A stretch of 64,000 nt of DNA from a virus. Taxonomy: Duplodnaviria; Heunggongvirae; Uroviricota; Caudoviricetes. The stretch lies in the IMG/VR virus record IMGVR_UViG_2706794662_000007, one strand, 5' to 3'. The first letter of the stretch is position 1, and the number at the start of each line of letters is the position of its first letter. Shown piece after piece: positions 6,655 to 55,321 of this stretch. The notes under the pieces are model-generated. The model was not told the DNA's origin. It worked only from the letters and a program-made list of their open reading frames with translations, and did not search any database. A program made the position numbers and the translations under genes.

Positions 6655-7248
6655 ATGAAACGTTCGTTACTTCTTGCTTGTATATACCTCTCGTCATTTT
6701 CCGCCAATGCGTTGTCAGATATCGTCTCCGACATGCAAAAAACGTACAGCATGTATACTTCTGAAGACGTACTAAAATACGAATCACGAGGTCTGATTCA
6801 ACCAGTCTGGTTCAGATTCTCAGATAACGCAGAAGAAACAATACTTAATGCAGGAAAAGAAAGATTACGGTTGCAAATTAACGGAACCGCTGTACCAGAA
6901 AACGTTAATGTAAGCTCTGACGAAGCCATGAAGCCATCTGGAATTGTTTTGGAAGTTCAAGACGGCACACTTTACTGTGATGAAATGGCTACAACAGGTT
7001 GCCAAGTAAACATTAGGGTTGGCAATGAAGAGCCTATCGTTACTTACGCCAAGGCTGAAGGGAATACAAGTGGAAAGGTATTGTTTATCGATGAAAATAC
7101 CTCAAAACGTATCGTTCGTGACATACAGAAAACAGCGAACTCTAAATCCGTCGATAAAAAAATCTATGTTGAGGTTCCCTTCTTTGTCGTTGGTAACAAA
7201 GAATTTAAATTTGGGTTGCTGAAAACACCTCTAAGAGTATCAGAATGA
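6655..7248 (+). CDS. secreted protein with cleavable signal peptide (hypothetical)
   Basis: N-terminus MKRSLLLACIYLSSFSANA; in AT-rich island; stop overlaps next start (ATGA). Confidence 0.5.
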   Translation: MKRSLLLACIYLSSFSANALSDIVSDMQKTYSMYTSEDVLKYESRGLIQPVWFRFSDNAEETILNAGKERLRLQINGTAVPENVNVSSDEAMKPSGIVLEVQDGTLYCDEMATTGCQVNIRVGNEEPIVTYAKAEGNTSGKVLFIDENTSKRIVRDIQKTANSKSVDKKIYVEVPFFVVGNKEFKFGLLKTPLRVSE

Positions 7249-7766
7249 GAACATTGGACATCACCTACGGCATACCGGCTGAAGTATGGCCGCGAGACTA
7301 CGAACATGCTGAACGTACCTTGCTCTTCTGGCGGAGTGCAAAATTTCCTGTAAGAGTCACTCTCGAAGACGGCCAAGTGTTTTGCATGTATGTCTACGGG
7401 CTATTGAGCGCAAGAAATAAGCTGAACCTCACACCAGATCCGCTTAGCAACACAAATCGTATAAGGCTCCCTCTTGAGCGCATTAGCACAATTGAGTCGG
7501 GCATAGAAGAGGTTGACACTTCATTCACAGGTCGACTAACGCTAAACAATGAACAGATGGTTAATCAGCCATCACGTCGTGACTTTTTTAAGATATGTCG
7601 TCAGGCTTACCAAAACGGCAAATCTATAAGGGTCTACATGGCAGACGGTCGCGAAATTGAGGGAACGTCAGATGGCGTTGACGCCTGTCTAGTCACACTT
7701 AAGTTGGAAGACGGTAGAAAAATACTTATTTTCTTCGATTGGGTTGAACGAATCCTTCCGTTTTAA
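7245..7766 (+). CDS. hypothetical cytoplasmic protein coupled to secreted protein
   Basis: 173 aa ORF overlapping upstream stop. Confidence 0.5.
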   Translation: MRTLDITYGIPAEVWPRDYEHAERTLLFWRSAKFPVRVTLEDGQVFCMYVYGLLSARNKLNLTPDPLSNTNRIRLPLERISTIESGIEEVDTSFTGRLTLNNEQMVNQPSRRDFFKICRQAYQNGKSIRVYMADGREIEGTSDGVDACLVTLKLEDGRKILIFFDWVERILPF

Positions 7767-9579: not shown

Positions 9580-9843
9580 NNNNNNNNNNNNNNNNNNNNN
9601 NNNNNNNNNNNNNNNNNNNNNNNNNNNNNNNNNNNNNNNNNNNNNNNNNNNNNNNNNNNNNNNNNNNNNNNNNNNNNNNNNNNNNNNNNNNNNNNNNNNN
9701 NNNNNNNNNNNNNNNNNNNNNNNNNNNNNNNNNNNNNNNNNNNNNNNNNNNNNNNNNNNNNNNNNNNNNNNNNNNNNNNNNNNNNNNNNNNNNNNNNNNN
9801 NNNNNNNNNNNNNNNNNNNNNNNNNNNNNNNNNNNNNNNNNNN
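9580..9843. other. N-run (masked or unresolved sequence)
   Basis: 264 consecutive n. Confidence 1.
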
Positions 9844-10324: not shown

Positions 10325-10674
10325 GATTAATTCCTTATCGTAAATAACAAATTGTTTTCTTGTTGGCGTTAATTATCGTTGTACGAATAAGGCGTCAAAG
10401 TGGAAAGTTGCGGTAGCCGGACGGGAACAGGTGGGTTTGTCGGTTGCCTGGAGGTAAGAGGTTGGTGTTTTTAGCCTGCGGGAAACAGGATGGTCATTTA
10501 AGGCCACCAGCAGTGGTGGCCTTAATAATTATCGACCGATTACGCTAAGGATCTTTTCCTCAACTGATTTGTTGTTGCGACTAAACTGCCTTGCGTATCT
10601 GATGACAGAAGAGGCGTTTTGCTTTCTGACTATCTCGGCTCTTTCCTTCAGGCGTTTCTTGAAATCGCCCATAT

Positions 10675-12622: not shown

Positions 12623-12841
12623 TTAATCTTGGTCGTCCGGGAACTCGCTGTGTACCGCGCCCACCAGCTCCCGCTTTTCATCTTCACTCAGCAGGTGCCA
12701 GATATCCTTCCCTTTGGGCGATTCCCCTTCTGCCGGGACGAACGACCACAACTTGCGGTACAACTCCGGCCCCACTGCATCCAGACACTCAGCCAGGGAA
12801 TCCACGCCCCACACCTCAACCGTCACAGGCATCTTAATCAT
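12623..12841 (-). CDS. hypothetical protein
   Basis: 72 aa ORF followed by hairpin. Confidence 0.35.
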   Translation of the reverse strand: MIKMPVTVEVWGVDSLAECLDAVGPELYRKLWSFVPAEGESPKGKDIWHLLSEDEKRELVGAVHSEFPDDQD

Positions 12842-14412
12842 CTCTTCATCCTCACTTCGTTTCTATAACGTCTAAATATGCTGTTTACTTGTTGGTGTTA
12901 TTATCGCAATAAGATAAAGGCGAAAAAGGATTTTATGTCGGGAAAGCCAGGCTGGGCAGTGAATATCCGGGAACGACACGAGAGCCAGTATTTACGATAT
13001 TCTGCTCTACGCGCGCCGCGGGGCTGGTGGGTAGAATAATCCTCTCCCCGAAAACCTACTGAAATCGATTGTGACCCGCTGGCTGTCTGGCACAATTACG
13101 CTGTATCTGGCATTCAGAGGGAATCCAGCGGTAAGCAAGTCAGCCTGCACGTGAGCGCCTCTCTTCTTCCCGCACATTACAGGTGGGTAGCTGCAACTCT
13201 CTCTCTCTCGCTATACCGGTACGCCGCCGTTCCAGAACCGGCATCGAGCCTTTTCCCGAAATCCACACAGGCAACTCGACCGTTTCCCTGAAAATCCCCA
13301 GCCGTTCCCCCGAAGGCAACCCAGCCGTTTCTGTAGCTGGATGCAACCTTTTCCCTGTATGGACCGAAGGCTGACCGTAGGGGGTGTTACGGGGGATAAA
13401 ATCAGGAGTTGAATAAATACGAAAAAGGAGGCGACCCCCCTCCTTCCCTCTCCACTTATACATACCTGGCTTCTTCGCTATACATGTTGTGTTTTATCTG
13501 TCTCAACCTCTCTATAGGCGTTAATGCTCACTCCTTCCAGAATGTTCTATACGGCGACTATTTCTGTTGGTGAATTGGGTGTGTTGTTTTCTCTGTCGGT
13601 GTATGTGGTTTCGTTAGTTTTGCGGTGGTTCTTCTATGGGGGTGTTCTCGTCGTTTTGGTGATTGTTCTTCTCCGTGTATGGAGTAATGGCAGGTGGGCG
13701 ATTGCTTTCGTTATTGTGTTTGAGTTGTTTGTCTGGAGTGTGTGAAGGCTTTTGTAGTTATTCGTGTATTGGGTAATGGCGTTTCCCGTGATTGTTATGT
13801 TTCGTGTCTTTTGGGATTGAGAGAAACCTTGCGGTTACAGGCTTCGTTAGGGTTTCAGCGGTTCAGGTGTTTCTTCGCTGTTTGGGTAATGGCGTGTCGT
13901 GGGTATCGCGCGTATGAATGTTTTCGGATTGCCTGTGAAAGTTAGGTTGGTTGTCCGGTAGCCTGGGGAGAAGAGGTGGGTCTTTTCGGTAGCCTGCCAT
14001 AAAGAGGTTGGTTGTTTTGGGTAATGGCATATGTGTTATTTGGTTGTTTTGTTATGCCTGAAAATAAGTTGTTTATATGGTTGTGTAACGCAACGGGAGC
14101 GATTTTGAGCGTGTGTTTTTGTTGGTAGTGTGTTGAGTCGTCTGTGGTGAAATTTGGACGCTGTGGCGCTATCTGCTGCGTAGAATTACGGGTATAAGAA
14201 GTGATGTGTGATAACGTCAATTTTTTAGACCAAATCGGGAGAAAGCGTTGATGTTTCGTTGATCTGTTATTTAGTTGTTTTCTTATTGGTATAAACAACC
14301 ATAACCTATTGATATTTAATGATGTGATTGCTGGTATGGGAGGGTAGTAGTGGCGATCAACGGGTTCTTATAGAAAAGAATCAAATTGTGACCGCCATTA
14401 TCAACGGTTTGA

Positions 14413-14598
14413 TTAGATGAGATGGTCTAATTCATCATCTATCATGGCTTTGACGCTGGAGTCGTTCACTCCATATTTATTTATGAGCTGTTTCAGCTCT
14501 GTCGAAAACTGAAGGTAGATATCGTGAGCGTTTTTCACTGTAGGTTCAACGCCACTCATTTCAAGCGCCTTTAGTAGATATGAGTCTTCTTTAAGCAT
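14413..14598 (-). CDS. hypothetical protein
   Basis: 61 aa ORF. Confidence 0.35.
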   Translation of the reverse strand: MLKEDSYLLKALEMSGVEPTVKNAHDIYLQFSTELKQLINKYGVNDSSVKAMIDDELDHLI

Positions 14599-15095: not shown

Positions 15096-17034
15096 TTACT
15101 TAACCTGGTGGCCAGGTTTAGCACCAGCATCCGGGCTTAACAGGAAGATATCTTTCCCGCCAGGACCGGCAGCCATCACCATGCCTTCAGAGATACCGAA
15201 GCGCATTTTACGTGGTGCCAGGTTAGCCACCATAATGGTGTGACGACCAATCAGTGCCTGTGGATCTGGATAAGCGGAACGGATGCCTGAGAAGACATTA
15301 CGCTTTTCACCACCGAGATCCAGCGTCAGGCGAAGCAGTTTGTCAGAACCTTCGACAAACTCCGCGTTTTCAATCAGCGCCACACGCAGGTCAACTTTGG
15401 CGAAGTCGTCAAAGGTGATGGTTTCCTGAATCGGTTCGTCAGCCAGTGGGCCAGTTACCGGTGCAGCTGTGGCTTTCACTTCTTCTTTGGATGCTTCCAC
15501 CAGTGCTTCCACCTGTTTCATATCGATACGGTTATACAGTGCCTTGAACGGATTCACTTTATGGCCCAGAAGCGGTTGCTGGATACCATCCCAGGTCAGT
15601 TCTGTATTCAGGAATGCTTCTGCACGTTCAGTCAGTTTCGGCAGTACCGGTTTCAGGTACGTCATCAGCACGCGGAACAGGTTAATGCCCATAGAGCAAA
15701 TCGCCTGCAGATCTGCATCGCGACCTTCCTGCTTCGCCACCACCCACGGAGCCTGTTCATCGACATAGCGATTAGCCAGGTCAGCCAATGCCATGATTTC
15801 ACGGATAGCTTTACCAAATTCGCGGCTTTCCCATGCTTCGCCAATCACTTCAGCGGCATCAGTAAAGGTTTTGTACAGTTGCGGGTCAGCCAGTTCGCTT
15901 GTCAGCACGCCGTCAAAACGCTTGTTGATAAAGCCTGCATTACGGGAGGCCAGGTTAACCACTTTGTTCACGATATCGGCATTCACGCGCTGAACGAAAT
16001 CTTCCAGGTTGAGATCGATATCATCAATGCGCGAAGAGAGTTTCGCAGTGTAGTAGTAACGCAGGCTGTCAGCGTCAAAATGATTCAGCCAGGTGCTGGC
16101 TTTAATAAAGGTGCCGCGAGACTTGGACATCTTCGCGCCGTTCACCGTCACATAGCCGTGAACAAACAGGTTGGTCGGCTTGCGGAAGTTGCTGCCTTCC
16201 AGCATGGCAGGCCAGAACAGACTGTGGAAGTAAACGATATCTTTGCCGATGAAGTGGTACAGCTCGGCGGTGGAGTCTTTCTTCCAGTATTCGTCGAAGC
16301 TTACGCTGTCGCCGCGCTTGTCGCACAGATTCTTGAAAGAACCCATGTAGCCAATCGGCGCGTCCAGCCAGACGTAGAAATATTTGCCCGGCGCGTTCGN
16401 NNNNNNNNNNNNNNNNNNNNNNNNNNNNNNNNNNNNNNNNNNNNNNNNNNNNNNNNNNNNNNNNNNNNNNNNNNNNNNNNNNNNNNNNNNNNNNNNNNNN
16501 NNNNNNNNNNNNNNNNNNNNNNNNNNNNNNNNNNNNNNNNNNNNNNNNNNNNNNNNNNNNNNNNNNNNNNNNNNNNNNNNNNNNNNNNNNNNNNNNNNNN
16601 NNNNNNNNNNNNNNNNNNNNNNNNNNNNNNNNNNNNNNNNNNNNNNNNNNNNNNNNNNNNNNNNNNNNNNNNNNNNNNNNNNNNNNNNNNNNNNNNNNNN
16701 NNNNNNNNNNNNNNNNNNNNNNNNNNNNCTCTTCGCTGTGCGTCGAGTGATAGTTGTCATAGCTGATGTTAAAGCCTGCGAAATCAGTCTGATGTTCCTG
16801 ACTCATTTCGCCAATCATCTGTTCCGGTGTGATACCAAGCTGCTGTGCTTTCAGCATGATTGGCGTACCGTGGGCATCGTCGGCACAGATGAAATTAACC
16901 TCGTGGCCGCGCATTCGCTGGTAACGAACCCAGACATCAGCCTGGATGTGCTCCAGCATATGGCCGAGGTGGATTGAGCCGTTAGCGTACGGCAGCGCGC
17001 ACGTCACCAGAATTTTCTTCGCGACTTGGGTCAT
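15096..17034 (-). CDS. metG: methionyl-tRNA synthetase (interrupted by N-run 16400-16728)
   Basis: Start [29 protein letters not shown] (HIGH-type motif) and C-terminus ...[24 protein letters not shown] match E. coli MetG as I recall it; the two flanking ORF fragments are in different frames because of the N-run. Confidence 0.95.
16400..16728. other. N-run inside metG
   Basis: 329 n. Confidence 1.
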
Positions 17035-17191
17035 AGTAGGCATTACTTCTTTGTAGTGAAAAGGGGCTTGATAGTAACAAAATGGCCTTATGTCTGCCAT
17101 GTGATAACAGCATTTCTCATAAATGATTAAATGTCGTAGCTGGAGTACACTACAAGGCGACAATTGCGCAAATTAAAATAAAGGAGACGGG

Positions 17192-18292
17192 ATGAGCGAG
17201 TCCAAATCGCCGGATGCCCTGAGAGCAATGGTAGCCGGTACGCTGGCTAATTTTCAGCACCCAACCCTGAAACACAACTTGACTACGCTTAAAGCGTTAC
17301 ACCATGTTGCGTTGATGGATGACACACTGCATGTCGAACTAATCATGCCTTTCGTGTGGAATAAGCCTTTTGAAGACCTGAAAGAGCAATGTAGTGGTGA
17401 TCTGCTCCGTATCACTGGCGCAAAGGCTATTGACTGGAAGCTGTCGTACAACATTGCCACGCTTAAGCGCGTCAAAAACCAACCAGGCATTAATGGCGTT
17501 AAGAACATTATCGCCGTCAGCTCAGGCAAGGGCGGCGTGGGTAAATCCTCCACAGCAGTAAACTTGGCACTGGCTTTGGCTGCTGAAGGTGCGAAAGTTG
17601 GTATTTTGGATGCCGATATCTATGGTCCATCAATTCCAACCATGCTGGGCGCGGAAAACCAACGTCCAACCTCACCGGACGGTACTCACATGGCACCTAT
17701 CATGTCTCATGGCCTGGCAACCAACTCTATTGGTTATCTGGTCACCGATGACAATGCAATGGTGTGGCGTGGACCGATGGCGAGCAAGGCGCTGATGCAG
17801 ATGTTGCAGGAAACACTGTGGCCTGATCTGGACTATCTCGTTCTCGATATGCCACCGGGCACTGGTGATATTCAATTGACGCTGGCGCAGAACATTCCTG
17901 TAACTGGTGCGGTTGTGGTAACTACGCCGCAAGACATCGCGCTGATCGATGCGAAGAAAGGCATTGTGATGTTCGAAAAAGTCGAAGTGCCGGTACTGGG
18001 TATCGTTGAAAACATGAGTGTGCATATTTGCAGTAACTGCGGTCATCACGAGCCAATTTTTGGCACCGGTGGAGCACAGAAACTGGCCGAGAAATACAAC
18101 ACGCAGTTGTTAGGCCAAATGCCACTTCATATCTCTCTTCGTGAAGATCTGGATAACGGAACACCAACCGTTATTAGTCGTCCAGATAGCGAATTTACGG
18201 CTATTTATCGTGACCTCGCAGATCGCGTTGCTGCCCAAATGTATTGGCAAGGTGAAGTAATACCTGGCGAAATCGCATTCCGCGCAGTGTGA
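17192..18292 (+). CDS. apbC: Mrp/ApbC Fe-S cluster carrier ATPase
   Basis: 366 aa; deviant Walker A AVSSGKGGVGKSST and CxxC (CSNCGH); divergent from metG as in the E. coli chromosome. Confidence 0.95.
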   Translation: MSESKSPDALRAMVAGTLANFQHPTLKHNLTTLKALHHVALMDDTLHVELIMPFVWNKPFEDLKEQCSGDLLRITGAKAIDWKLSYNIATLKRVKNQPGINGVKNIIAVSSGKGGVGKSSTAVNLALALAAEGAKVGILDADIYGPSIPTMLGAENQRPTSPDGTHMAPIMSHGLATNSIGYLVTDDNAMVWRGPMASKALMQMLQETLWPDLDYLVLDMPPGTGDIQLTLAQNIPVTGAVVVTTPQDIALIDAKKGIVMFEKVEVPVLGIVENMSVHICSNCGHHEPIFGTGGAQKLAEKYNTQLLGQMPLHISLREDLDNGTPTVISRPDSEFTAIYRDLADRVAAQMYWQGEVIPGEIAFRAV

Positions 18293-18294
18293 TA

Positions 18295-18319
18295 AAAAGG
18301 CGGTGCATTGCACCGCCTA
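18295..18319 (-). terminator. hairpin terminator (T-run on minus strand)
   Basis: ggcggtgcaatgcaccgcc followed by ttttt on minus strand, between apbC stop and UmuD'-like stop. Confidence 0.5.
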
Positions 18320-18329
18320 ATCAGTTCTC

Positions 18330-18719
18330 CTACATCACAGGACAATCATCAAACTCGCCACTTCTTGCGTCGTTGATAATGTGAGTGATCACACCAAACA
18401 CGGCATTGCTGCCCGTGCATCCATCGTCATCCTTTGGCAATGCTTCCTTCTTACCGGTTCTTAAATCCTCCAGATGCTGACGTGGAGACTTCCGGTATCT
18501 TTTTACGCGATATTCCCCATCCAGAGCGCATACAAGCAGAGAACCATCAACCGGGGTAAGTGAGGAATCAACCACCAGCAATGCACCCTGTAATATTCCC
18601 TCACGATGATGACTATCAGCTGCTCTCATGAAGTAGGTCGCTGAAGGATGTCTAATTATCTGCTGATCAAGAGAAATACGGCTCTCAGCATAATCCGCCG
18701 CAGGAGAAGGGAAGCCCAT
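18330..18719 (-). CDS. UmuD'-like S24 peptidase family protein
   Basis: GFPSPAADYAE...HPSATYF...DS...VKRYRK...VFGVITHIIN aligns with the UmuD C-terminal domain and lacks the N-terminal arm, like processed UmuD'; motif A upstream at 18839-18856. Confidence 0.7.
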   Translation of the reverse strand: MGFPSPAADYAESRISLDQQIIRHPSATYFMRAADSHHREGILQGALLVVDSSLTPVDGSLLVCALDGEYRVKRYRKSPRQHLEDLRTGKKEALPKDDDGCTGSNAVFGVITHIINDARSGEFDDCPVM

Positions 18720-18904: not shown

Positions 18905-19423
18905 CTAAAAATCAAANNNNNNNNNNNNNNNNNNNNNNNNNNNNNNNNNNNNNNNNNNNNNNNNNNNNNNNNNNNNNNNNNNNNNNNNNNNNNNNNNNNN
19001 NNNNNNNNNNNNNNNNNNNNNNNNNNNNNNNNNNNNNNNNNNNNNNNNNNNNNNNNNNNNNNNNNNNNNNNNNNNNNNNNNNNNNNNNNNNNNNNNNNNN
19101 NNNNNNNNNNNNNNNNNNNNNNNNNNNNNNNNNNNNNNNNNNNNNNNNNNNNNNNNNNNNNNNNNNNNNTTTAAAGGAAGATAGGTTCCCCATAGTAGCT
19201 GTCTGCCGTGCGCTCGTGTGAAATACCGGGCCATCTTCGGATTGCTATGCTGCTTAGGAGCGCCTGGTCTGTATGTCTGATACCCGGCCAACATCCCATC
19301 AAACCTGTATAGAGGGAATGTAACAACTCCTTCGCTTTCATCGATCCACTGTCTATATGGATGCACATCATAGCGGTAGTTACGAGTTAGCAAATGAGCT
19401 TCCAGCTTTCCAAATTTAGTCAT
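18905..19423 (-). CDS. hypothetical protein (interrupted by N-run)
   Basis: Start set to MTKFGKLEAH with GAGGGA ribosome-binding site; C-terminal part and frame uncertain. Confidence 0.35.
   Translation of the reverse strand: MTKFGKLEAHLLTRNYRYDVHPYRQWIDESEGVVTFPLYRFDGMLAGYQTYRPGAPKQHSNPKMARYFTRAHGRQLLWGTYLPLXXXXXXXXXXXXXXXXXXXXXXXXXXXXXXXXXXXXXXXXXXXXXXXXXXXXXXXXXXXXXXXXXXXXXXXXXXXXXXXXXXXXXFDF
18917..19169. other. N-run
   Basis: 253 n. Confidence 1.
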
Positions 19424-21475: not shown

Positions 21476-21748
21476 TTAACCCGCAGTGCNNNNNNNNNNN
21501 NNNNNNNNNNNNNNNNNNNNNNNNNNNNNNNNNNNNNNNNNNNNNNNNNNNNNNNNNNNNNNNNNNNNNNNNNNNNNNNNNNNNNNNNNNNNNNNNNNNN
21601 NNNNNNNNNNNNNNNNNNNNNNNNNNNNNNNNNNNNNNNNNNNNNNNNNNNNNNNNNNNNNNNNNNNNNNNNNNNNNNNNNNNNNNNNNNNNNNNNNNNN
21701 NNNNNNNNNNNNNNNNNNNNNNNNNNNNNNNNNNNNNNNAGTTGCCAT
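21476..21748 (-). CDS. hypothetical protein (mostly masked by N-run)
   Basis: ATG at 21748 preceded by conserved junction GGAGAGTGATATG; body is n. Confidence 0.3.
   Translation of the reverse strand: MATXXXXXXXXXXXXXXXXXXXXXXXXXXXXXXXXXXXXXXXXXXXXXXXXXXXXXXXXXXXXXXXXXXXXXXXXXXXXXXXXXXXXTAG
21490..21739. other. N-run
   Basis: 250 n. Confidence 1.
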
Positions 21749-25187: not shown

Positions 25188-26892
25188 TCATTTAACGCGT
25201 TTGAAAACGTATACGCTGACTGTGATCCCTGTGTCTTCAAACTCGTTGGTAAACGACTTCCCTCTGGCATAAACGTAATTATCCATCGTCATCCAGTCCA
25301 GTATTGGCGCNNNNNNNNNNNNNNNNNNNNNNNNNNNNNNNNNNNNNNNNNNNNNNNNNNNNNNNNNNNNNNNNNNNNNNNNNNNNNNNNNNNNNNNNNN
25401 NNNNNNNNNNNNNNNNNNNNNNNNNNNNNNNNNNNNNNNNNNNNNNNNNNNNNNNNNNNNNNNNNNNNNNNNNNNNNNNNNNNNNNNNNNNNNNNNNNNN
25501 NNNNNNNNNNNNNNNNNNNNNNNNNNNNNNNNNNNNNNNNNNNNNNNNNNNNNNNNNNNNNNNNNCCAGATCGGCGTTAATATAGGCCAGAAGATCCCCA
25601 CGTCCGGCTTGAGGCTCCAACAGCTTCTCACCAGGCTTCAATTCAGTGGCTCTGGCAACGTACTCAGCAATCAAGCGTGGGGTAGGGTAGAACTGGTGTG
25701 ATTTTGTATCCGGTATTAAACCGGTAGCCACAATCGTATTTAGCGTATGGCCGATCTCATACGGGAACTGCCAGTGCTTTTTCTCCTGCACGCCGCCAAT
25801 GAAGCTCAGTGTGCGCTCAAGCTCTTCCACCTGCGACTTCTGGAGAGCTGAATCAGAGAAGTACCATACGCCTTTGTCTTTGCTCAATCGCCCGTCACGA
25901 AGCGCAGTGCGAACCGGCACGGAGATCGTCTTCTGGATTAACCCGAACTGCTTTGGTGCCCGTGTTTTTGGCGCAGTTCGGCATGGCGCGGGGATTGCAG
26001 CAGGCATACTGTAAGCCAGCACCTCATTCAACTTCCAGGCCACGTCAGGATGTATTTCAAAGTGAACGTTGCCGTTCTTGAACATCTTCACGCGCATCAG
26101 ATTTCCATCGACGTTCATCCAGTCACCGGTCTGGCAGTCGTTTGCCCGATACGCAGCTGATAGCACCTCAGCAGTGCGGTTGATGGTAATAAATTCTTTG
26201 TGCGCGAAGAAATGAAGCAAGACACGCAGATCGTCGATGTAGTCCTCTTTGCGATAGTTCACGCTAACGCTGTCACGCCAGAAATCAGAAATGCAGTCAG
26301 CGATTATCAGACGCTCGCTGAAACCGTTTGTCTTATTTGTCTTGTGCGCAGGACTCAGCGCCTTAAACAAGCCATACACGCGCTCAGAGAGATATTTGTG
26401 CCTGTCATTCAGCAAATTAAGCATCGTTGGTATGACCGTTTCTGCTTTGAACTCCGGTACACCAACGAACTCTTTAACCTTCATCTGATAGCCGGTTCTG
26501 TCAGTTTTGATGACTTCCTGCTTGCCCTCGATAAATAGCTCACGCCACTCGTCGCGACGGGAAGCTGGCATGATCAGCAGAACGTTAGTCATATCCGTAA
26601 CCTTCCTCCAGTACTCGGCCCAAATATTCTGTTTCACCCATTCCAGATCGACGTTATCCAGCCAGACTCGATTCAAACGTGAGCGATCTTCATCTGGTCG
26701 GTGGTTTAGTCGAAGCAGGCGATTAATCATGTTGTGGCGTTCATCGCCATAAACGAAGTCGTGTACCTGATACATGAAGGAGATCTCTTTCTCGCACTCG
26801 GCCACAATTTCGTGGATGACGTTCATTTCCTGTCGATAGTCGATAGCAGTGTTTGAGCTGGCATCGCCCATGATGGAAAGGGCTGTATTCAT
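25188..26892 (-). CDS. putative N6-adenine DNA methyltransferase with large N-terminal extension (C-terminal part masked)
   Basis: FYPTPRLIAEYV followed by EPQAGRGDLLAYI (motif X then motif I, gamma-class order) just before the N-run; the catalytic (D/N)PPY region would lie in the masked part. Confidence 0.45.
25311..25565. other. N-run
   Basis: 255 n. Confidence 1.
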
Positions 26893-43272: not shown

Positions 43273-45195
43273 AGCTGCGCCCCTCTTTAACTTCCAGCGT
43301 AATAGTTTCCCGGAACCATGACTTCATCTCTTTATGGGAGATAATCAGCACAGTACCTCGCTCGCGAGCTTTGGACTCCAGAATACCCATGAGGCGTTCA
43401 AGACCGGCTGTATCGAGTGCATCGTCAATTTCGTCGCCGATAAACAAATCGATGTTTTTACTCGCCCGGTTACTAACCAGATCCTGCAATGCCAAAGAAC
43501 ACGCAATGCGAACCTTCCGCTTCTCACCACCAGAGAGGGTCTGGAACGACTTACTTGAACCTTTCTTCTGCACACTAATGTTGAATTTGTCGCGATACTC
43601 ACCTTTTTTGGTGACATCCATCGTCGACCACTCAGCAGTAATATTCCCGTCAGACAACGTATTGAGATACTCGGCAGTGCGTGTATTCAGGAAAGGCGTA
43701 ACAGACGTCAAAATATGAGAACGCACCCCGGCAGGAGAGTAGACCTGACGAGCTTTTTCCAATAGCAACGTTTGTTCCTGAATAGCCTTCAACTCATCTT
43801 TTAAGGACTTGAAGGTAGACTTACTGGATACCAGGTTATCTTCGTGTCTGGCGATAAGAGCAATAAACGGATTAATCTCTTTTGATATACGATCGACCTC
43901 AGTACGAGCACGAGTCACAAGAGACTCAATAGCAACAATCTCCTTCTCACGATGACGCAAAGATGAGAGTTGTTTCGTAAGCTCTTCAATCCGGGCAATG
44001 ATAGCCGTTACATCAGGTGTCGTTTTAACAAGGGCAGACTCAATGCTTAACGCTTTCTCAAGATTCGTTTTGTGTTTAGCCATTGCCTCTGCAAGTGTCT
44101 TCGCCTGACCAATTTCCTGACGTGCTTGTTCAATGAAATTCTCCTTCACCGTTGATAGATCTTCTTCGCAGTAGGCTTTGCCACAAGTAGGGCATGGTGA
44201 TCCCACTTTAGTACCAACCTCTTCTGCTTTGGTCTTAAAATTACGCGCGCGGTTCATTGCATCAGCCTGACTATTTTCTGTAGCTTTGATGCTTGCCCGA
44301 ATATCAGTTATCGCACCACGAACNNNNNNNNNNNNNNNNNNNNNNNNNNNNNNNNNNNNNNNNNNNNNNNNNNNNNNNNNNNNNNNNNNNNNNNNNNNNN
44401 NNNNNNNNNNNNNNNNNNNNNNNNNNNNNNNNNNNNNNNNNNNNNNNNNNNNNNNNNNNNNNNNNNNNNNNNNNNNNNNNNNNNNNNNNNNNNNNNNNNN
44501 NNNNNNNNNNNNNNNNNNNNNNNNNNNNNNNNNNNNNNNNNNNNNNNNNNNNNNNNNNNNNNNNNNNNNNNNNNNNNNNNNNNNNNGATTGTCGACTCCA
44601 ATTTGGTTTTAACCACATCCATACGTGCGGCAGCTGCATTAGCTCGCTCACGAGCAATAGCGTAGGCGCGTGTCAGTCTGTCAACGCCAGCGGCTTCTTC
44701 TACGATGGTTTTGAGGTTTTTGTCGGACATTCCAGGTAAATCTGGCATAGCTTCTTGGCTCGCATAGATGGAAGCCATGAAAACCTCTTTAGATGCACCG
44801 ATCAGACGCTCGACGAACTCTTGCGTCAGCGCATCTTTGCCTTTCGTCATATCGCCGTCTTCACCACGAACGATAAGCCGATTTTTGAACTCTTTGTGTT
44901 TACGGTGACGAATGATCGCATATCTCTTGCCTTCATCCTCGATGGTTACTGCAACACGACAGTTCTTTTCATGGTCGGTAGACAACACATCGTCACCCTT
45001 CACACCATGAGCTGTTTCGCCATAAAGACACCACATCAGGCTATTCATTAGCGTTGACTTTCCAGAGCCATTACTTGATGCGGAACTATCATCACTATTA
45101 ACACCCTGAATGAGCACTAAACCACGCTGATCTAACTCGACCTCCGCGCTGGCGATAGCCATAAAATTCTCAACCTGGAGCTTTAAAAACTTCAT
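43262..45195 (-). CDS. SbcC/Rad50-like ATPase (gp46-like), interrupted by N-run 44324-44586
   Basis: N-terminal Walker A GSNGSGKST; C-terminal signature LSGGEKRK and Walker B LFIGDEID; coiled-coil middle. Confidence 0.8.
44324..44586. other. N-run
   Basis: 263 n. Confidence 1.
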
Positions 45196-54230: not shown

Positions 54231-55321
54231 TTACTCTTCTACTGACTCGGTGGGGTTGTCTTTTGCTCTTCGGTCGTCGATTGCCTGCAAAGCCGCAATG
54301 ATTTCAGCCAGTGGCTTCTCCCGATACATCTCGACGATCTGCGATTTGGTGTATTTCTTGTCACCAATTTCAACTCGCCCGCTGGCGTTCTTTGGCAGGT
54401 ATCCTTCTTCCAGCATGTACTCGACGAGCGATTCGATAACGTCGAGGCCACGAGTAGGATCGAAGTAGAATTTCCAGGTGCATTTGCCATACGGTGGTGC
54501 AACTTTGTTTTTGATGCATTCTGCGCCTACGTCCTGGCCGATCTTCTCTTTACCATCCTTCATCACCGATGCACCAAGACGGATACGTACAGAAGCGTAG
54601 AACTTCGGTGAATCTCCACCTGGAGACGTAGTAGGGTCGCCAAACATTACACCGATTTTTGTGCGAACCTGATTCAAGAAGATGATGCAGGCGTTGTATT
54701 TGCGTGCCCACAAAGCCAGAGTAGGGAAGTTCGCACTTGTCGCACGAGCCAGTGCCGTATTGTCGTTCATGTTTAGCTGATCTTTGTCTTTGGCAGTGCC
54801 TTCAGCCATCTTTTCGAACTTCTCGGCTTTGGAGTTCGGAACCATAGACGCAAGTGAGTCAGCCACGATACAGATAGGTGCTGATTCAGGAATAAGCTCT
54901 TCATCACGTACCAATTTAAGAATTGTGCCGATCAACTCTACAGAGTCTTCGAAGGTATCAGGCTGCTTGTATACCCACTGACCGTCATCCTCATCTGCAT
55001 TCAAACCATTGGCTACAGCCAGGCCAACGTCAAAACTGTTCTCATGATCGAGGANNNNNNNNNNNNNNNNNNNNNNNNNNNNNNNNNNNNNNNNNNNNNN
55101 NNNNNNNNNNNNNNNNNNNNNNNNNNNNNNNNNNNNNNNNNNNNNNNNNNNNNNNNNNNNNNNNNNNNNNNNNNNNNNNNNNNNNNNNNNNNNNNNNNNN
55201 NNNNNNNNNNNNNNNNNNNNNNNNNNNNNNNNNNNNNNNNNNNNNNNNNNNNNNNNNNNNNNNNNNNNNNNNNNNNNNNNNNNNNNNNNNNNNNNNNNNN
55301 NNNNNNNNNNNNTTTTGCCAT
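54231..55321 (-). CDS. RecA-family recombinase (UvsX/RecA-like), interrupted by N-run 55055-55312
   Basis: C-terminal part ...IIFLNQVRTKIGVMFGDPTTSPGGDSPKFYASVRIRLG matches the RecA core (loop L2 region); N-terminal ATG at 55321; Walker motifs presumably masked. Confidence 0.8.
55055..55312. other. N-run
   Basis: 258 n. Confidence 1.

Follow-up and report, generated by a model that had tools for sequence, protein, structure and literature searches.

A conserved, gene-free and strand-skewed region of SSU5-type phage-plasmids is a candidate site of lytic-phase control

The DNA analysed here is a stretch of 64,000 nt (hereafter the window) from the virus record IMGVR_UViG_2706794662_000007 (Caudoviricetes). 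Its subject is a gap of ~1.6 kb at positions 12842-14412, lying between two minus-strand genes (12623-12841 and 14413-14598). By the annotation of a close relative, this gap is the longest gene-free stretch in an element of ~110 kb. Over 12850-14410, the sequence was 100% identical to the Shigella sonnei plasmid LR213459.1, 92-97% identical to ~110 kb E. coli plasmids and to the phages Cyrano, PhiR41_1 and CMS-2020a, and 67-76% identical to Salmonella phage SSU5 and to plasmids of Klebsiella, Enterobacter, Citrobacter, Cronobacter and Buttiauxella. Because of these plasmid and phage matches, the window is assigned to a phage-plasmid of the SSU5/pHCM2 type. The region was carried by 246 of 5426 complete E. 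coli genomes, always on a plasmid, and by ~840 plasmids of PLSDB (Klebsiella, Escherichia, Enterobacter, Salmonella and others). No likeness to the host chromosome was detected, as all 253 E. coli matches (253/253) fell on plasmids. Full-text literature searches returned no description of the region, and the Cyrano phage paper contains none. Conserved and without annotation, the region belongs to a widespread family.

The main features of the gap, together with a second locus of one of its repeats, are the following:

10411-10466, plus strand: second locus of the 31-nt repeat, CGGTAGCC..AGGTGGGT, two units in a small G+T-skewed spacer
13227-13357, plus strand: six direct repeats CCGTTTCCC(T/C)G, starting at 13227, 13249, 13280, 13302, 13325 and 13347, in a C-rich segment
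13362-13420, no strand assigned: conserved block GACCGAAGGCTGACCG..GTTACGGGGGAT, then a modestly A+T-rich stretch; column conservation 0.76-0.90
13421-13446, minus strand: minus-sense hairpin, with a U-rich tail in the window and Klebsiella clades, intrinsic-terminator-like
13470-14330, no strand assigned: keto-skewed zone; plus strand G+T-rich and C-poor, minus-sense reading A+C-rich and almost without base pairing
13669-13696, 13758-13785 and 13871-13898, plus strand: three copies of the 28-nt direct repeat TGTTCTTCTCCGTGTATGGAGTAATGGC; a further GGGTAATGGC core at 14019-14028
13925-14017, plus strand: three 31-nt tandem units CGGTAGCCTG-N5-AAGAGGTGGGT-N5, the leftmost degenerate
14031-14055, plus strand: operator-like 25-mer, copy B, ATGTGTTATTTGGTTGTTTTGTTAT, in a conserved A+T-rich island
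14191-14220, minus strand: candidate promoter P_L, with TTGACG (14220 to 14215), an 18-nt spacer and TATACC (14196 to 14191); predicted start ~14184
14246-14286, plus strand: two direct CGTTGAT heptamers (14246-14252 and 14257-14263) and operator-like 25-mer, copy A (14262-14286); conservation 0.89-0.93
14351-14406, no strand assigned: right-end module with arms TGGCGATCA (14351-14359) and TGACCGCCA (14389-14397), at the boundary to a variable gene slot

Conservation was followed in forty full-length relatives, and spacings were counted over up to 41 sequences. The sequences form three clades (Escherichia; Salmonella/Enterobacter/Citrobacter; Klebsiella) between which identity over the region is 62-77%. 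The pattern is mosaic: stretches at 25-55% identity alternate with blocks at 85-96%. High-identity blocks were located at 12882-12920, 13382-13400, 13642-13700, 13962-14000 (within the 31-mers) and 14222-14280. A scan of genome contigs for more distant relatives gave 3 loci only, and in a metagenome scan with a gapped, unspecific pattern, 17 of the 120 loci listed were true relatives, all within the known clades.

An initial annotation, made from the letters alone, had proposed a cis-acting region (lytic origin, packaging or resolution site) or a long non-coding RNA locus. The region turned out to be conserved among related elements across genera, and homology searches gave no conserved protein-coding gene in it; the class proposed, cis-acting site or non-coding RNA locus, is therefore the right one for this gene-free, conserved DNA, although a packaging or resolution site received no specific support, as described below.

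The view that no credible open reading frame (ORF) exists in the gap agreed with three tests: homology searches, the phase of insertions and deletions (indels), and the phase of substitutions. The Prokaryotic Genome Annotation Pipeline (PGAP) left the gap unannotated in nearly all relatives, and the few ORFs called in it by other annotators disagree between records. Ten gap ORFs (41-118 aa) had no match in Pfam, and their sole PHROG match was at E=0.09. When 21 non-redundant relatives were aligned, 76 distinct indels were counted, of which 61 were not multiples of three, and substitutions were spread without codon phase (103/95/90 and 76/75/74). A protein-coding gene was rejected on these three grounds. 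The minus strand is nearly stop-free over 13540-14300 in all sequences, because it is rich in A and C. That feature could be read as the trace of a decayed gene, or of a non-functional spacer whose composition is a mutational by-product, though A+C richness alone predicts the same. Such a reading is hardly credible. It leaves unexplained the blocks of 85-96% conservation between clades whose overall identity is only 62-70%, the fixed spacings of the motifs, and the presence of the region in every lineage while neighbour genes come and go; the lack of protein homology, the frame-breaking indels and the flat substitution phase also count against a former gene. The decayed-gene reading is largely refuted already by the conservation pattern.

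The most unusual property of the region is its composition. The plus strand had been described as G+T-rich and C-poor, and this was borne out: over 13560-14330 it contains 17% A, 11.7% C, 31% G and 40% T, so that G+T makes up 71%. The keto skew, (G+T-A-C)/N, reached +0.46 (z=8.2 relative to 1121 other 500-nt windows, the maximum of which was +0.15). Over ~950 nt, the GC skew stays between +0.21 and +0.44, and the AT skew between -0.18 and -0.52, in all clades. The skew is equally strong at variable and at invariant columns, and among two-state variable columns 80 were G<->T versus 10 A<->C. The variable sites are free to change only within G/T. Since the skew is kept at variable columns with G<->T dominating, it appears to be a selected, strand-specific property.

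Read in the minus sense, the same zone contains 39% A, 30% C, 15% G and 15% U, with 12.5 YC (pyrimidine-C) dinucleotides per 100 nt. A 700-nt minus-sense segment folded at -98 kcal/mol, compared with a mean of -201±19.5 kcal/mol for 61 background segments, the least stable of which was at -153 kcal/mol. The plus-sense RNA folded in an ordinary way (-182 kcal/mol). For ten sequences taken from all clades, minus-sense folding energies were between -89 and -122 kcal/mol. The minus-sense A/C alphabet cannot base-pair, and 850 nt written in a pair-free alphabet point to a single-stranded RNA or DNA that must stay unfolded. A structured non-coding RNA was rejected, as no conserved fold or covariation was present on either strand: the structure conservation index was below 0.6 in every 120-nt window on both strands, and the minus-sense consensus folding energy was ~0 across the skewed zone. 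The whole window had 0 Rfam 15 matches at gathering score and one at E<=5 (E=3.4), a tRNA/tmRNA scan found none, and a search for local inverted repeats returned one trivial case only.

The repeats were then delimited more precisely than in the initial annotation. Four copies of GGGTAATGGC had been reported there; three are exact (13771, 13884 and 14019) and the fourth is a variant, GAGTAATGGC, at 13682, the positions first given having been 1-9 nt off. Three of these four copies are the cores of the longer 28-nt repeat. Its three copies are spaced by 89 and 113 nt in the window; in both the SSU5 and the Klebsiella clade the spacings are 93 and 135 nt. Across clades the first copy hardly varies, and 28-mers were found nowhere else in the element. 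A unit 'TTTCCCnGAAAATCC' ('TTTCCC') had also been seen, in three to four copies; the repeat is real, and its true unit is CCGTTTCCC(T/C)G in six copies. These follow each other at 22, 31, 22, 23 and 22 nt, about two helical turns, an iteron-like phasing. The array is also present in SSU5 (21-32 nt spacing) and is aligned in all clades. The bare CCGTTTCCC-type 9-mer was not enriched window-wide; what matters is the phased local clustering and the cross-clade conservation of the array, not the 9-mer count.

For the 31-nt units, the period is retained in 28 of 35 sequences, and the relative EC052 has one extra unit. Their second locus, ~3.5 kb from the region and also found in relatives from other clades, is flanked on one side by a terminator hairpin with a Chi site (10501-10524) and on the other by the -35 of a leftward promoter, and so occupies an untranscribed spacer. 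Since 31-mers recur in such a spacer, this family argues for DNA-level protein sites at two loci. All repeat families are direct and lie on one strand. Taken together, the phased, position-fixed repeats and the duplicated 31-mer locus point to putative DNA-protein assemblies.

Several other identities were tried for the repeats and rejected. No global period was detected by autocorrelation, and Tandem Repeats Finder (TRF) was silent in the region proper, with one call at its left edge, which excludes one long tandem array. A CRISPR array or a ToxI-like type III antitoxin was discarded, the 28-mer spacing being irregular and no ORF following the 31-mer array on either strand. The RfaH-recruiting ops element is GGCGGTAGCGTG, read from the non-template strand in the leader of an operon that is transcribed. 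CGGTAGCCTG matches 9 of its 10 core bases, but on the plus strand, the one that serves as template for all genes nearby, and at 10411-10466 it lies in the untranscribed spacer.

P_L was the best promoter-like site conserved across 21 sequences, and it outscored an evident gene promoter. Its hexamers, TTGACG and TATAC(C/T) (TATACC/TATATC), are invariant, while the 18-nt spacer is fixed in length and variable in sequence. It points leftward, into the A+C-rich reading. Membership of a promoter class was rejected, P_L being unique in the genome. The distance from the module of heptamers and 25-mer at 14246-14286 to the P_L -35 is invariant in 40 of 41 sequences, and copies A and B of the 25-mer are 231-232 nt apart in 34 of 41. 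P_L, the heptamers and copy A of the 25-mer, together with an A-tract, form a rigid module (14185-14290). At the left, the hairpin at 13421-13446 was weaker and without a U-run in the SSU5 clade, according to a terminator scan and to folds of four clades. In the right-end module, two ATCAACG heptamers (14356-14362 and 14400-14406) correspond to CGTTGAT on the minus strand. Its arms are invariant, 36-37 nt apart in all sequences, and absent elsewhere in the element. In minus-sense RNA this module folds as a hairpin, without a U-tail.

Clustered, oriented repeats next to an inverted-repeat module are typical of other cis-acting DNA sites, for example a pac site for headful packaging, a site of multimer resolution, or a centromere bound by the ParB-like proteins of the element. 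CGTTGAT occurs twice per orientation around a variable centre of ~90 nt, and ParB_N-domain proteins are encoded ~9 kb away. Even so, a site of this kind is very unlikely here. Such sites normally adjoin their enzymes, but the region is ~13-14 kb from the terminase and portal genes, on its left, and ~50 kb from the integrase. No palindromic parS-like sequence was found, local inverted repeats are almost absent, and none of these roles explains 850 nt of strand skew. A P1-type pac was rejected on two counts, the distance to the terminase genes and the presence of only two GATC sites, with no P1-pac-like clusters of Dam sites (GATC hexamers). No finding speaks specifically for the packaging or resolution site proposed at first.

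Expression in lysogens was taken from a published reanalysis of E. coli LF82 RNA-seq, with per-gene values for Cyrano (PMC9928086 S1 Table). One spurious ORF of that phage, CYRAN_103, maps to the minus strand at window ~13945-14300 and spans the predicted P_L start. Its log2(5+FPKM) was 2.32, that is 0 FPKM (fragments per kilobase per million mapped reads), in both LB replicates of libraries whose strandedness is not established, and it was at most ~14 FPKM in the remaining conditions (PMC9928086). CYRAN_104, over the left half of the region, was at background level, and CYRAN_102, immediately upstream, was at 57 FPKM in LB and ~590 in one condition (PMC9928086). Expression in Cyrano thus falls from 57 to 0-2 FPKM within ~110 nt, across the right-end module. 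The region is silent in lysogens, and transcription of the neighbour gene ends at this module. Since lysogen RNA-seq contains no transcript, the long non-coding RNA locus initially considered is excluded in its constitutive form. Cyrano is inducible by ciprofloxacin.

This abrupt stop bears on a transcriptional insulator, in which leftward transcripts from the accessory slot would be terminated by Rho, with the intrinsic hairpin as a back-up, and the early lytic genes would be shielded in the lysogen. The right flank is a hot spot for differing accessory genes. Rho utilization (rut) regions are defined by a C>G bias and little secondary structure (PMC12360218), and the minus-sense reading, with twice as much C as G (30% versus 15%), its YC density and its minimal structure, agrees with this definition. 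However, rut sites act at 60-90 nt (PMC12360218), a need that ~850 nt far exceed, and the drop in RNA-seq precedes most of the A+C-rich zone. The near-invariant repeats with fixed spacings, the internal promoter-like module and the second 31-mer locus also remain without explanation. As an account of the whole region, an insulator is unlikely. Because the predicted minus-sense transcript would be a textbook Rho substrate, Rho-dependent insulation of the early genes is probably at least a side function.

The silence in lysogens is also what would be expected of a lytic product, and the main rival to the reading preferred below is a gene for a lytic-phase non-coding RNA. An untranslated, structure-free and A+C-rich minus-sense RNA of ~750 nt, carrying 4-6 motifs that contain GCCAUUAC(C/U)C, would be made from P_L or by read-through after induction. 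In trans, it would sequester a single-strand RNA-binding factor (Rho, Hfq or S1, for instance) or a phage protein, as a decoy or sponge; in cis, it would be an attenuating leader of the downstream early genes. The skew suggests that a pair-free alphabet is selected for, G<->T dominating the transversions at variable sites, and only the minus-sense RNA is abnormal in folding while the plus-sense RNA is ordinary. The direction agrees with P_L, with the hairpin or terminator at 13446-13421 and with all flanking genes, and the repeats are all direct and on one strand. No transcript has been observed so far, though; the -10 of P_L is poor, the terminator is non-canonical in the SSU5 clade, and one of the operator-like copies is located upstream of where transcription is predicted to begin. 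The presence of 31-mers in an untranscribed spacer, and spacings that resemble helical phasing, suggest DNA-level sites instead. We regard this RNA as possible, and tentatively so: it explains the skew best and the DNA-level features less well.

Two specific partners were discarded for such an RNA. For a GcvB decoy, the best duplex with the G/U-rich R1 of GcvB was no better than with composition-matched shuffles in four clades, so that there is no complementarity beyond composition (the gcvB sequence used was confirmed at 100% identity). For a CsrA sponge, GGA motifs are too few, and in the window clade two of the three copies lack the CGGAGAA motif. A more specific proposal is that selection keeps ~750 nt of a two-letter RNA (A and C) unfolded, as a decoy (e.g. 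for Rho, allowing read-through of the long early operons) or as a structure-free primer or R-loop former; we consider it doubtful. To our knowledge, and in the literature searched, no natural regulatory RNA written in a pair-free A/C alphabet has been described. If the skew reflects true selection for an unfoldable RNA, it would represent a new design principle for regulatory RNA.

The reading we prefer is that of a repressor-controlled, transcription-activated lytic origin ('oriLyt'), separate from the RepA origin. We give it a probability of roughly one in three (about 0.35), and no higher because neither an origin hallmark nor an initiator was found. Several observations speak for it: the longest gap of the element is kept in every clade despite its variable right flank; four direct-repeat families have phased or clade-conserved spacings (22, 31, 93/135 and 231 nt); 31-mers recur in an untranscribed spacer at a second locus; the hexamers of P_L are invariant, and its spacer keeps its length but not its sequence; no expression is seen in lysogens; and the skew is under apparent selection, with a structure-poor minus-sense RNA in all clades. 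Constraints that suggest DNA-protein contacts and others that suggest an unfolded single strand coexist in the region, and the lytic-origin model covers both.

The annotation of the close relative places repA and its iterons ~32 kb from the region. These iterons resemble ATCCACTATAGAGAG, have a 21-bp phasing and lie beside repA together with DnaA boxes. As the motifs of the region differ from them, RepA/IncFIB-pHCM2 iterons, or an incA-like copy-control locus, were rejected. The element encodes its own DnaE, theta, 3'-5' exonuclease, DnaB-like helicase, ligase, 5'-3' exonuclease and RNase HI. With a distant repA, unlike repeats and its own replication proteins, it plausibly needs a second, lytic start site.

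The proposed sequence of events is as follows. In the lysogen, the region would be kept silent, and read-through from the accessory gene would halt at the right-end inverted-repeat module. P_L lies between two operator-like sites 231 bp apart, which is exactly 22 helical turns and would suit repression by DNA looping. After induction, P_L would transcribe ~0.75 kb leftward over the phased 28-mers and 31-mers, heading to the 13446-13421 hairpin and the 22-bp-phased, iteron-like array. The transcript, almost only A and C, would be unfolded and untranslated, and for that reason may stay on its template or re-invade it. The displaced DNA strand would be equally structure-free. Such an opening of the duplex might admit the DnaB-like helicase and the DnaE replisome of the element, and its RNase HI could trim the RNA to a primer. 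The analysis shows that the region is non-coding, conserved, skewed, silent in lysogens and poor in RNA folding, and it shows how its repeats are arranged and spaced; promoter activity, looping, protein binding to the repeats and any role in replication are inferred.

A number of results weigh against a lytic origin. No initiator protein was identified. No DnaA box with <=1 mismatch is present in the window copy and none is conserved; consensus sites for integration host factor (IHF) occur only in the window clade and are not conserved; GATC sites number 1-4 per sequence (two in the window copy), without a conserved cluster. A strong A+T-rich unwinding element was not found, the best conserved islands having 65-72% A+T over ~40 nt. 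A host-type, DnaA-dependent origin was rejected on these four grounds. The cumulative GC skew of the window carries no origin signal, and gene orientation does not switch at the region. The -10 of P_L is without the consensus final T, and a consensus scan did not call it. Finally, an A+C-rich RNA differs from the G-rich type that forms stable R-loops.

Considering these points together, the region most likely serves the lytic cycle, as a replication start or through an unusual unfolded RNA. In terms of known types, it is most likely a variant of a lytic control or origin region or of a terminator, with a small chance that it represents a regulatory RNA of a new type. SSU5-type phage-plasmids are common and carry resistance genes such as dfrA51, and the region is the best single candidate locus for the start of their lytic replication and for their lysis-lysogeny circuitry. 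If it is a true lytic origin, it would offer a handle for copy-number control and for the engineering of these elements.

Three further features of the gap were recorded:

12880-12912, minus strand: promoter/operator-like block of the 72-aa gene; extended -10 TGCGATAAT (12908 to 12900), then ACAAGTAAACAGC
13023-13030, plus strand: Chi octamer GCTGGTGG, not specific to the region
13197-13209, plus strand: (CT)6.5 tract, absent from other clades in the alignment

The block at 12880-12912 is one copy of an early-promoter/5'-leader motif, AAGAAAACAAC|TTGTTT, with a cross-clade conservation of 0.89-0.96. The motif had 15 matches in the window, for 2.4 expected, nearly all of them just upstream of minus-strand gene starts, and it marks the beginning of about a dozen early transcription units. 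Its layout is an (extended) -10, 7-8 nt, A(C/T)AAGAAAACAA(C/T)TTGTTT, then the ribosome-binding site of the early gene, with the palindrome AAACAAnTTGTTT inside. Minus-strand copies are at 10351, 12018, 12503, 12880, 14954, 28546, 29275, 39492 and 53031, besides weaker ones. The motif could be the operator of a lysogeny repressor, comparable to the dispersed C1 operators of P1, or an RNA element common to the 5' leaders. At 7245-7766 on the plus strand, the window encodes a full-length FljA homologue ('repressor of phase-1 flagellin', PF03614, E=1e-68). Salmonella FljA acts on the fliC mRNA leader, which may resemble the early-gene leader motif. The homologue in the window may serve to silence host flagellin or to regulate phage mRNA.

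An exact Chi had been reported, as a Chi-like site, at about its true position; it lies in the left part of the gap, which is moderately conserved, and is unremarkable, being one of 14 in the window. Chi occurs there at ~1 per 4.6 kb (e.g. at 10504, 12607, 12661 and 13023), against 1.3 expected from shuffles. The E. coli chromosome has an equal Chi density. Two copies examined sit in terminator hairpins, with Chi readable on one strand or the other. The (CT)n tract pointed out at about 13196-13210 also exists, as a lineage-specific feature that is not conserved.

On the left, the region is followed by a minus-strand gene for an acidic protein of 72 aa (12623-12841), and the two are kept together in every lineage, unlike the right neighbour. 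The latter varies by lineage: it is a 61-aa gene in the window, a coiled-coil gene in Cyrano, and genes of 0.56 kb or 1.2 kb elsewhere. The 72-aa gene is 92-94% identical in nucleotides between the Escherichia clade and SSU5, Enterobacter and Citrobacter, and ~75% in Klebsiella and Buttiauxella. Its conservation far exceeds that of the non-coding region and of the remaining neighbours, and it is confined to the SSU5-type phage-plasmid family. The 72-aa protein has no known domain, and no known function was found for the flanking small proteins. In the SSU5/Enterobacter clade, an insertion of ~250 nt with a small gene (SSU5_110, L002 6132-6374) lies just past the promoter block, at a point equivalent to window ~12912, and at the same site in Enterobacter plasmids. 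As the left part of the gap tolerates insertions, its constant core is ~13200-14412.

Further to the right is a long minus-strand run of early and DNA-metabolism genes, including captured host metG, RNase HI, thymidylate synthase, DfrA51 and NrdAB. metG (15096-17130, minus strand) and apbC/mrp (~17290-18390, plus strand) are full-length copies of host genes in divergent orientation, as on the E. coli chromosome. This indicates a captured chromosomal segment that is now a family trait of the Escherichia clade. Seven runs of N (250-329 nt each; 9580-9843, 16400-16728, 18917-19169, 21490-21739, 25311-25565, 44324-44586 and 55055-55312) mask parts of the window, some of metG among them, and leave the studied region untouched. 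Outside the family, ~750 nt of a Klebsiella-type region (its G+T-rich right half) persist in the Klebsiella pneumoniae plasmid pKP21HI1 (CP031563.1; L011 3715-4465). The same fragment is present in similar 190-260 kb IncFIB/IncHI1B non-phage plasmids, with insertion sequence (IS) elements on both sides, and is probably an IS-flanked recombination relic that carries no information on the region.

Among known systems, the lytic-origin reading has its closest models in repressor-controlled lytic replicons of plasmid-prophages, namely Op53-P53-repL/oriL of P1, and the ori of P4 with its distant cis replication region crr. The likeness consists in a plasmid-prophage with a proposed lytic start apart from the plasmid origin, in silencing, proposed for the region, by a lysogeny repressor through operators at the promoter, and in sites repeated at two places that are separated by a few kb, in this element the 31-mers at 13925-14017 and 10411-10466. 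The region differs in having no overlapping or adjoining repL- or alpha-like initiator gene. Its repeats are unrelated in sequence, and its 850-nt strand skew has no P1 or P4 counterpart. Iteron origins (P1 oriR/incA, R6K gamma, the element's own RepA origin) resemble it in the six direct repeats phased at ~22 bp, but the repeats are unlike the RepA iterons of the element, no rep gene is adjacent, and DnaA boxes and A+T-rich 13-mers are absent from the region.

A second group is formed by transcription- or R-loop-primed origins, such as ColE1 RNA II, T4 oriF/oriG and the herpesvirus oriLyt. As in these, a promoter, here a candidate one predicted to yield an untranslated transcript, points into a non-coding zone beside repeats, and the element encodes an RNase HI. 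Their RNA is structured or G-rich and is combined with a short A+T-rich unwinding element, whereas the RNA predicted here is A+C-rich and unfolded, with no strong unwinding element. For the RNA reading, comparison can be made with sponge RNAs, CsrB/RsmZ for CsrA and CrcZ for Hfq/Crc, and with the phage anti-sRNA AgvB. The shared trait is a candidate non-coding RNA with several accessible copies of one motif, and AgvB is a precedent for a C/A-rich decoy made by a phage. The region differs in its lack of GGA-loop repeats and of a specific GcvB match, and in being silent in lysogens. Finally, rut regions, such as lambda tR1 (PMC12360218), resemble it in being untranslated, richer in C than in G and minimally structured, with an abrupt stop of expression past the upstream gene. 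Compared to these, the region is about ten times longer and contains near-invariant repeats at fixed spacings, together with an internal promoter-like module.

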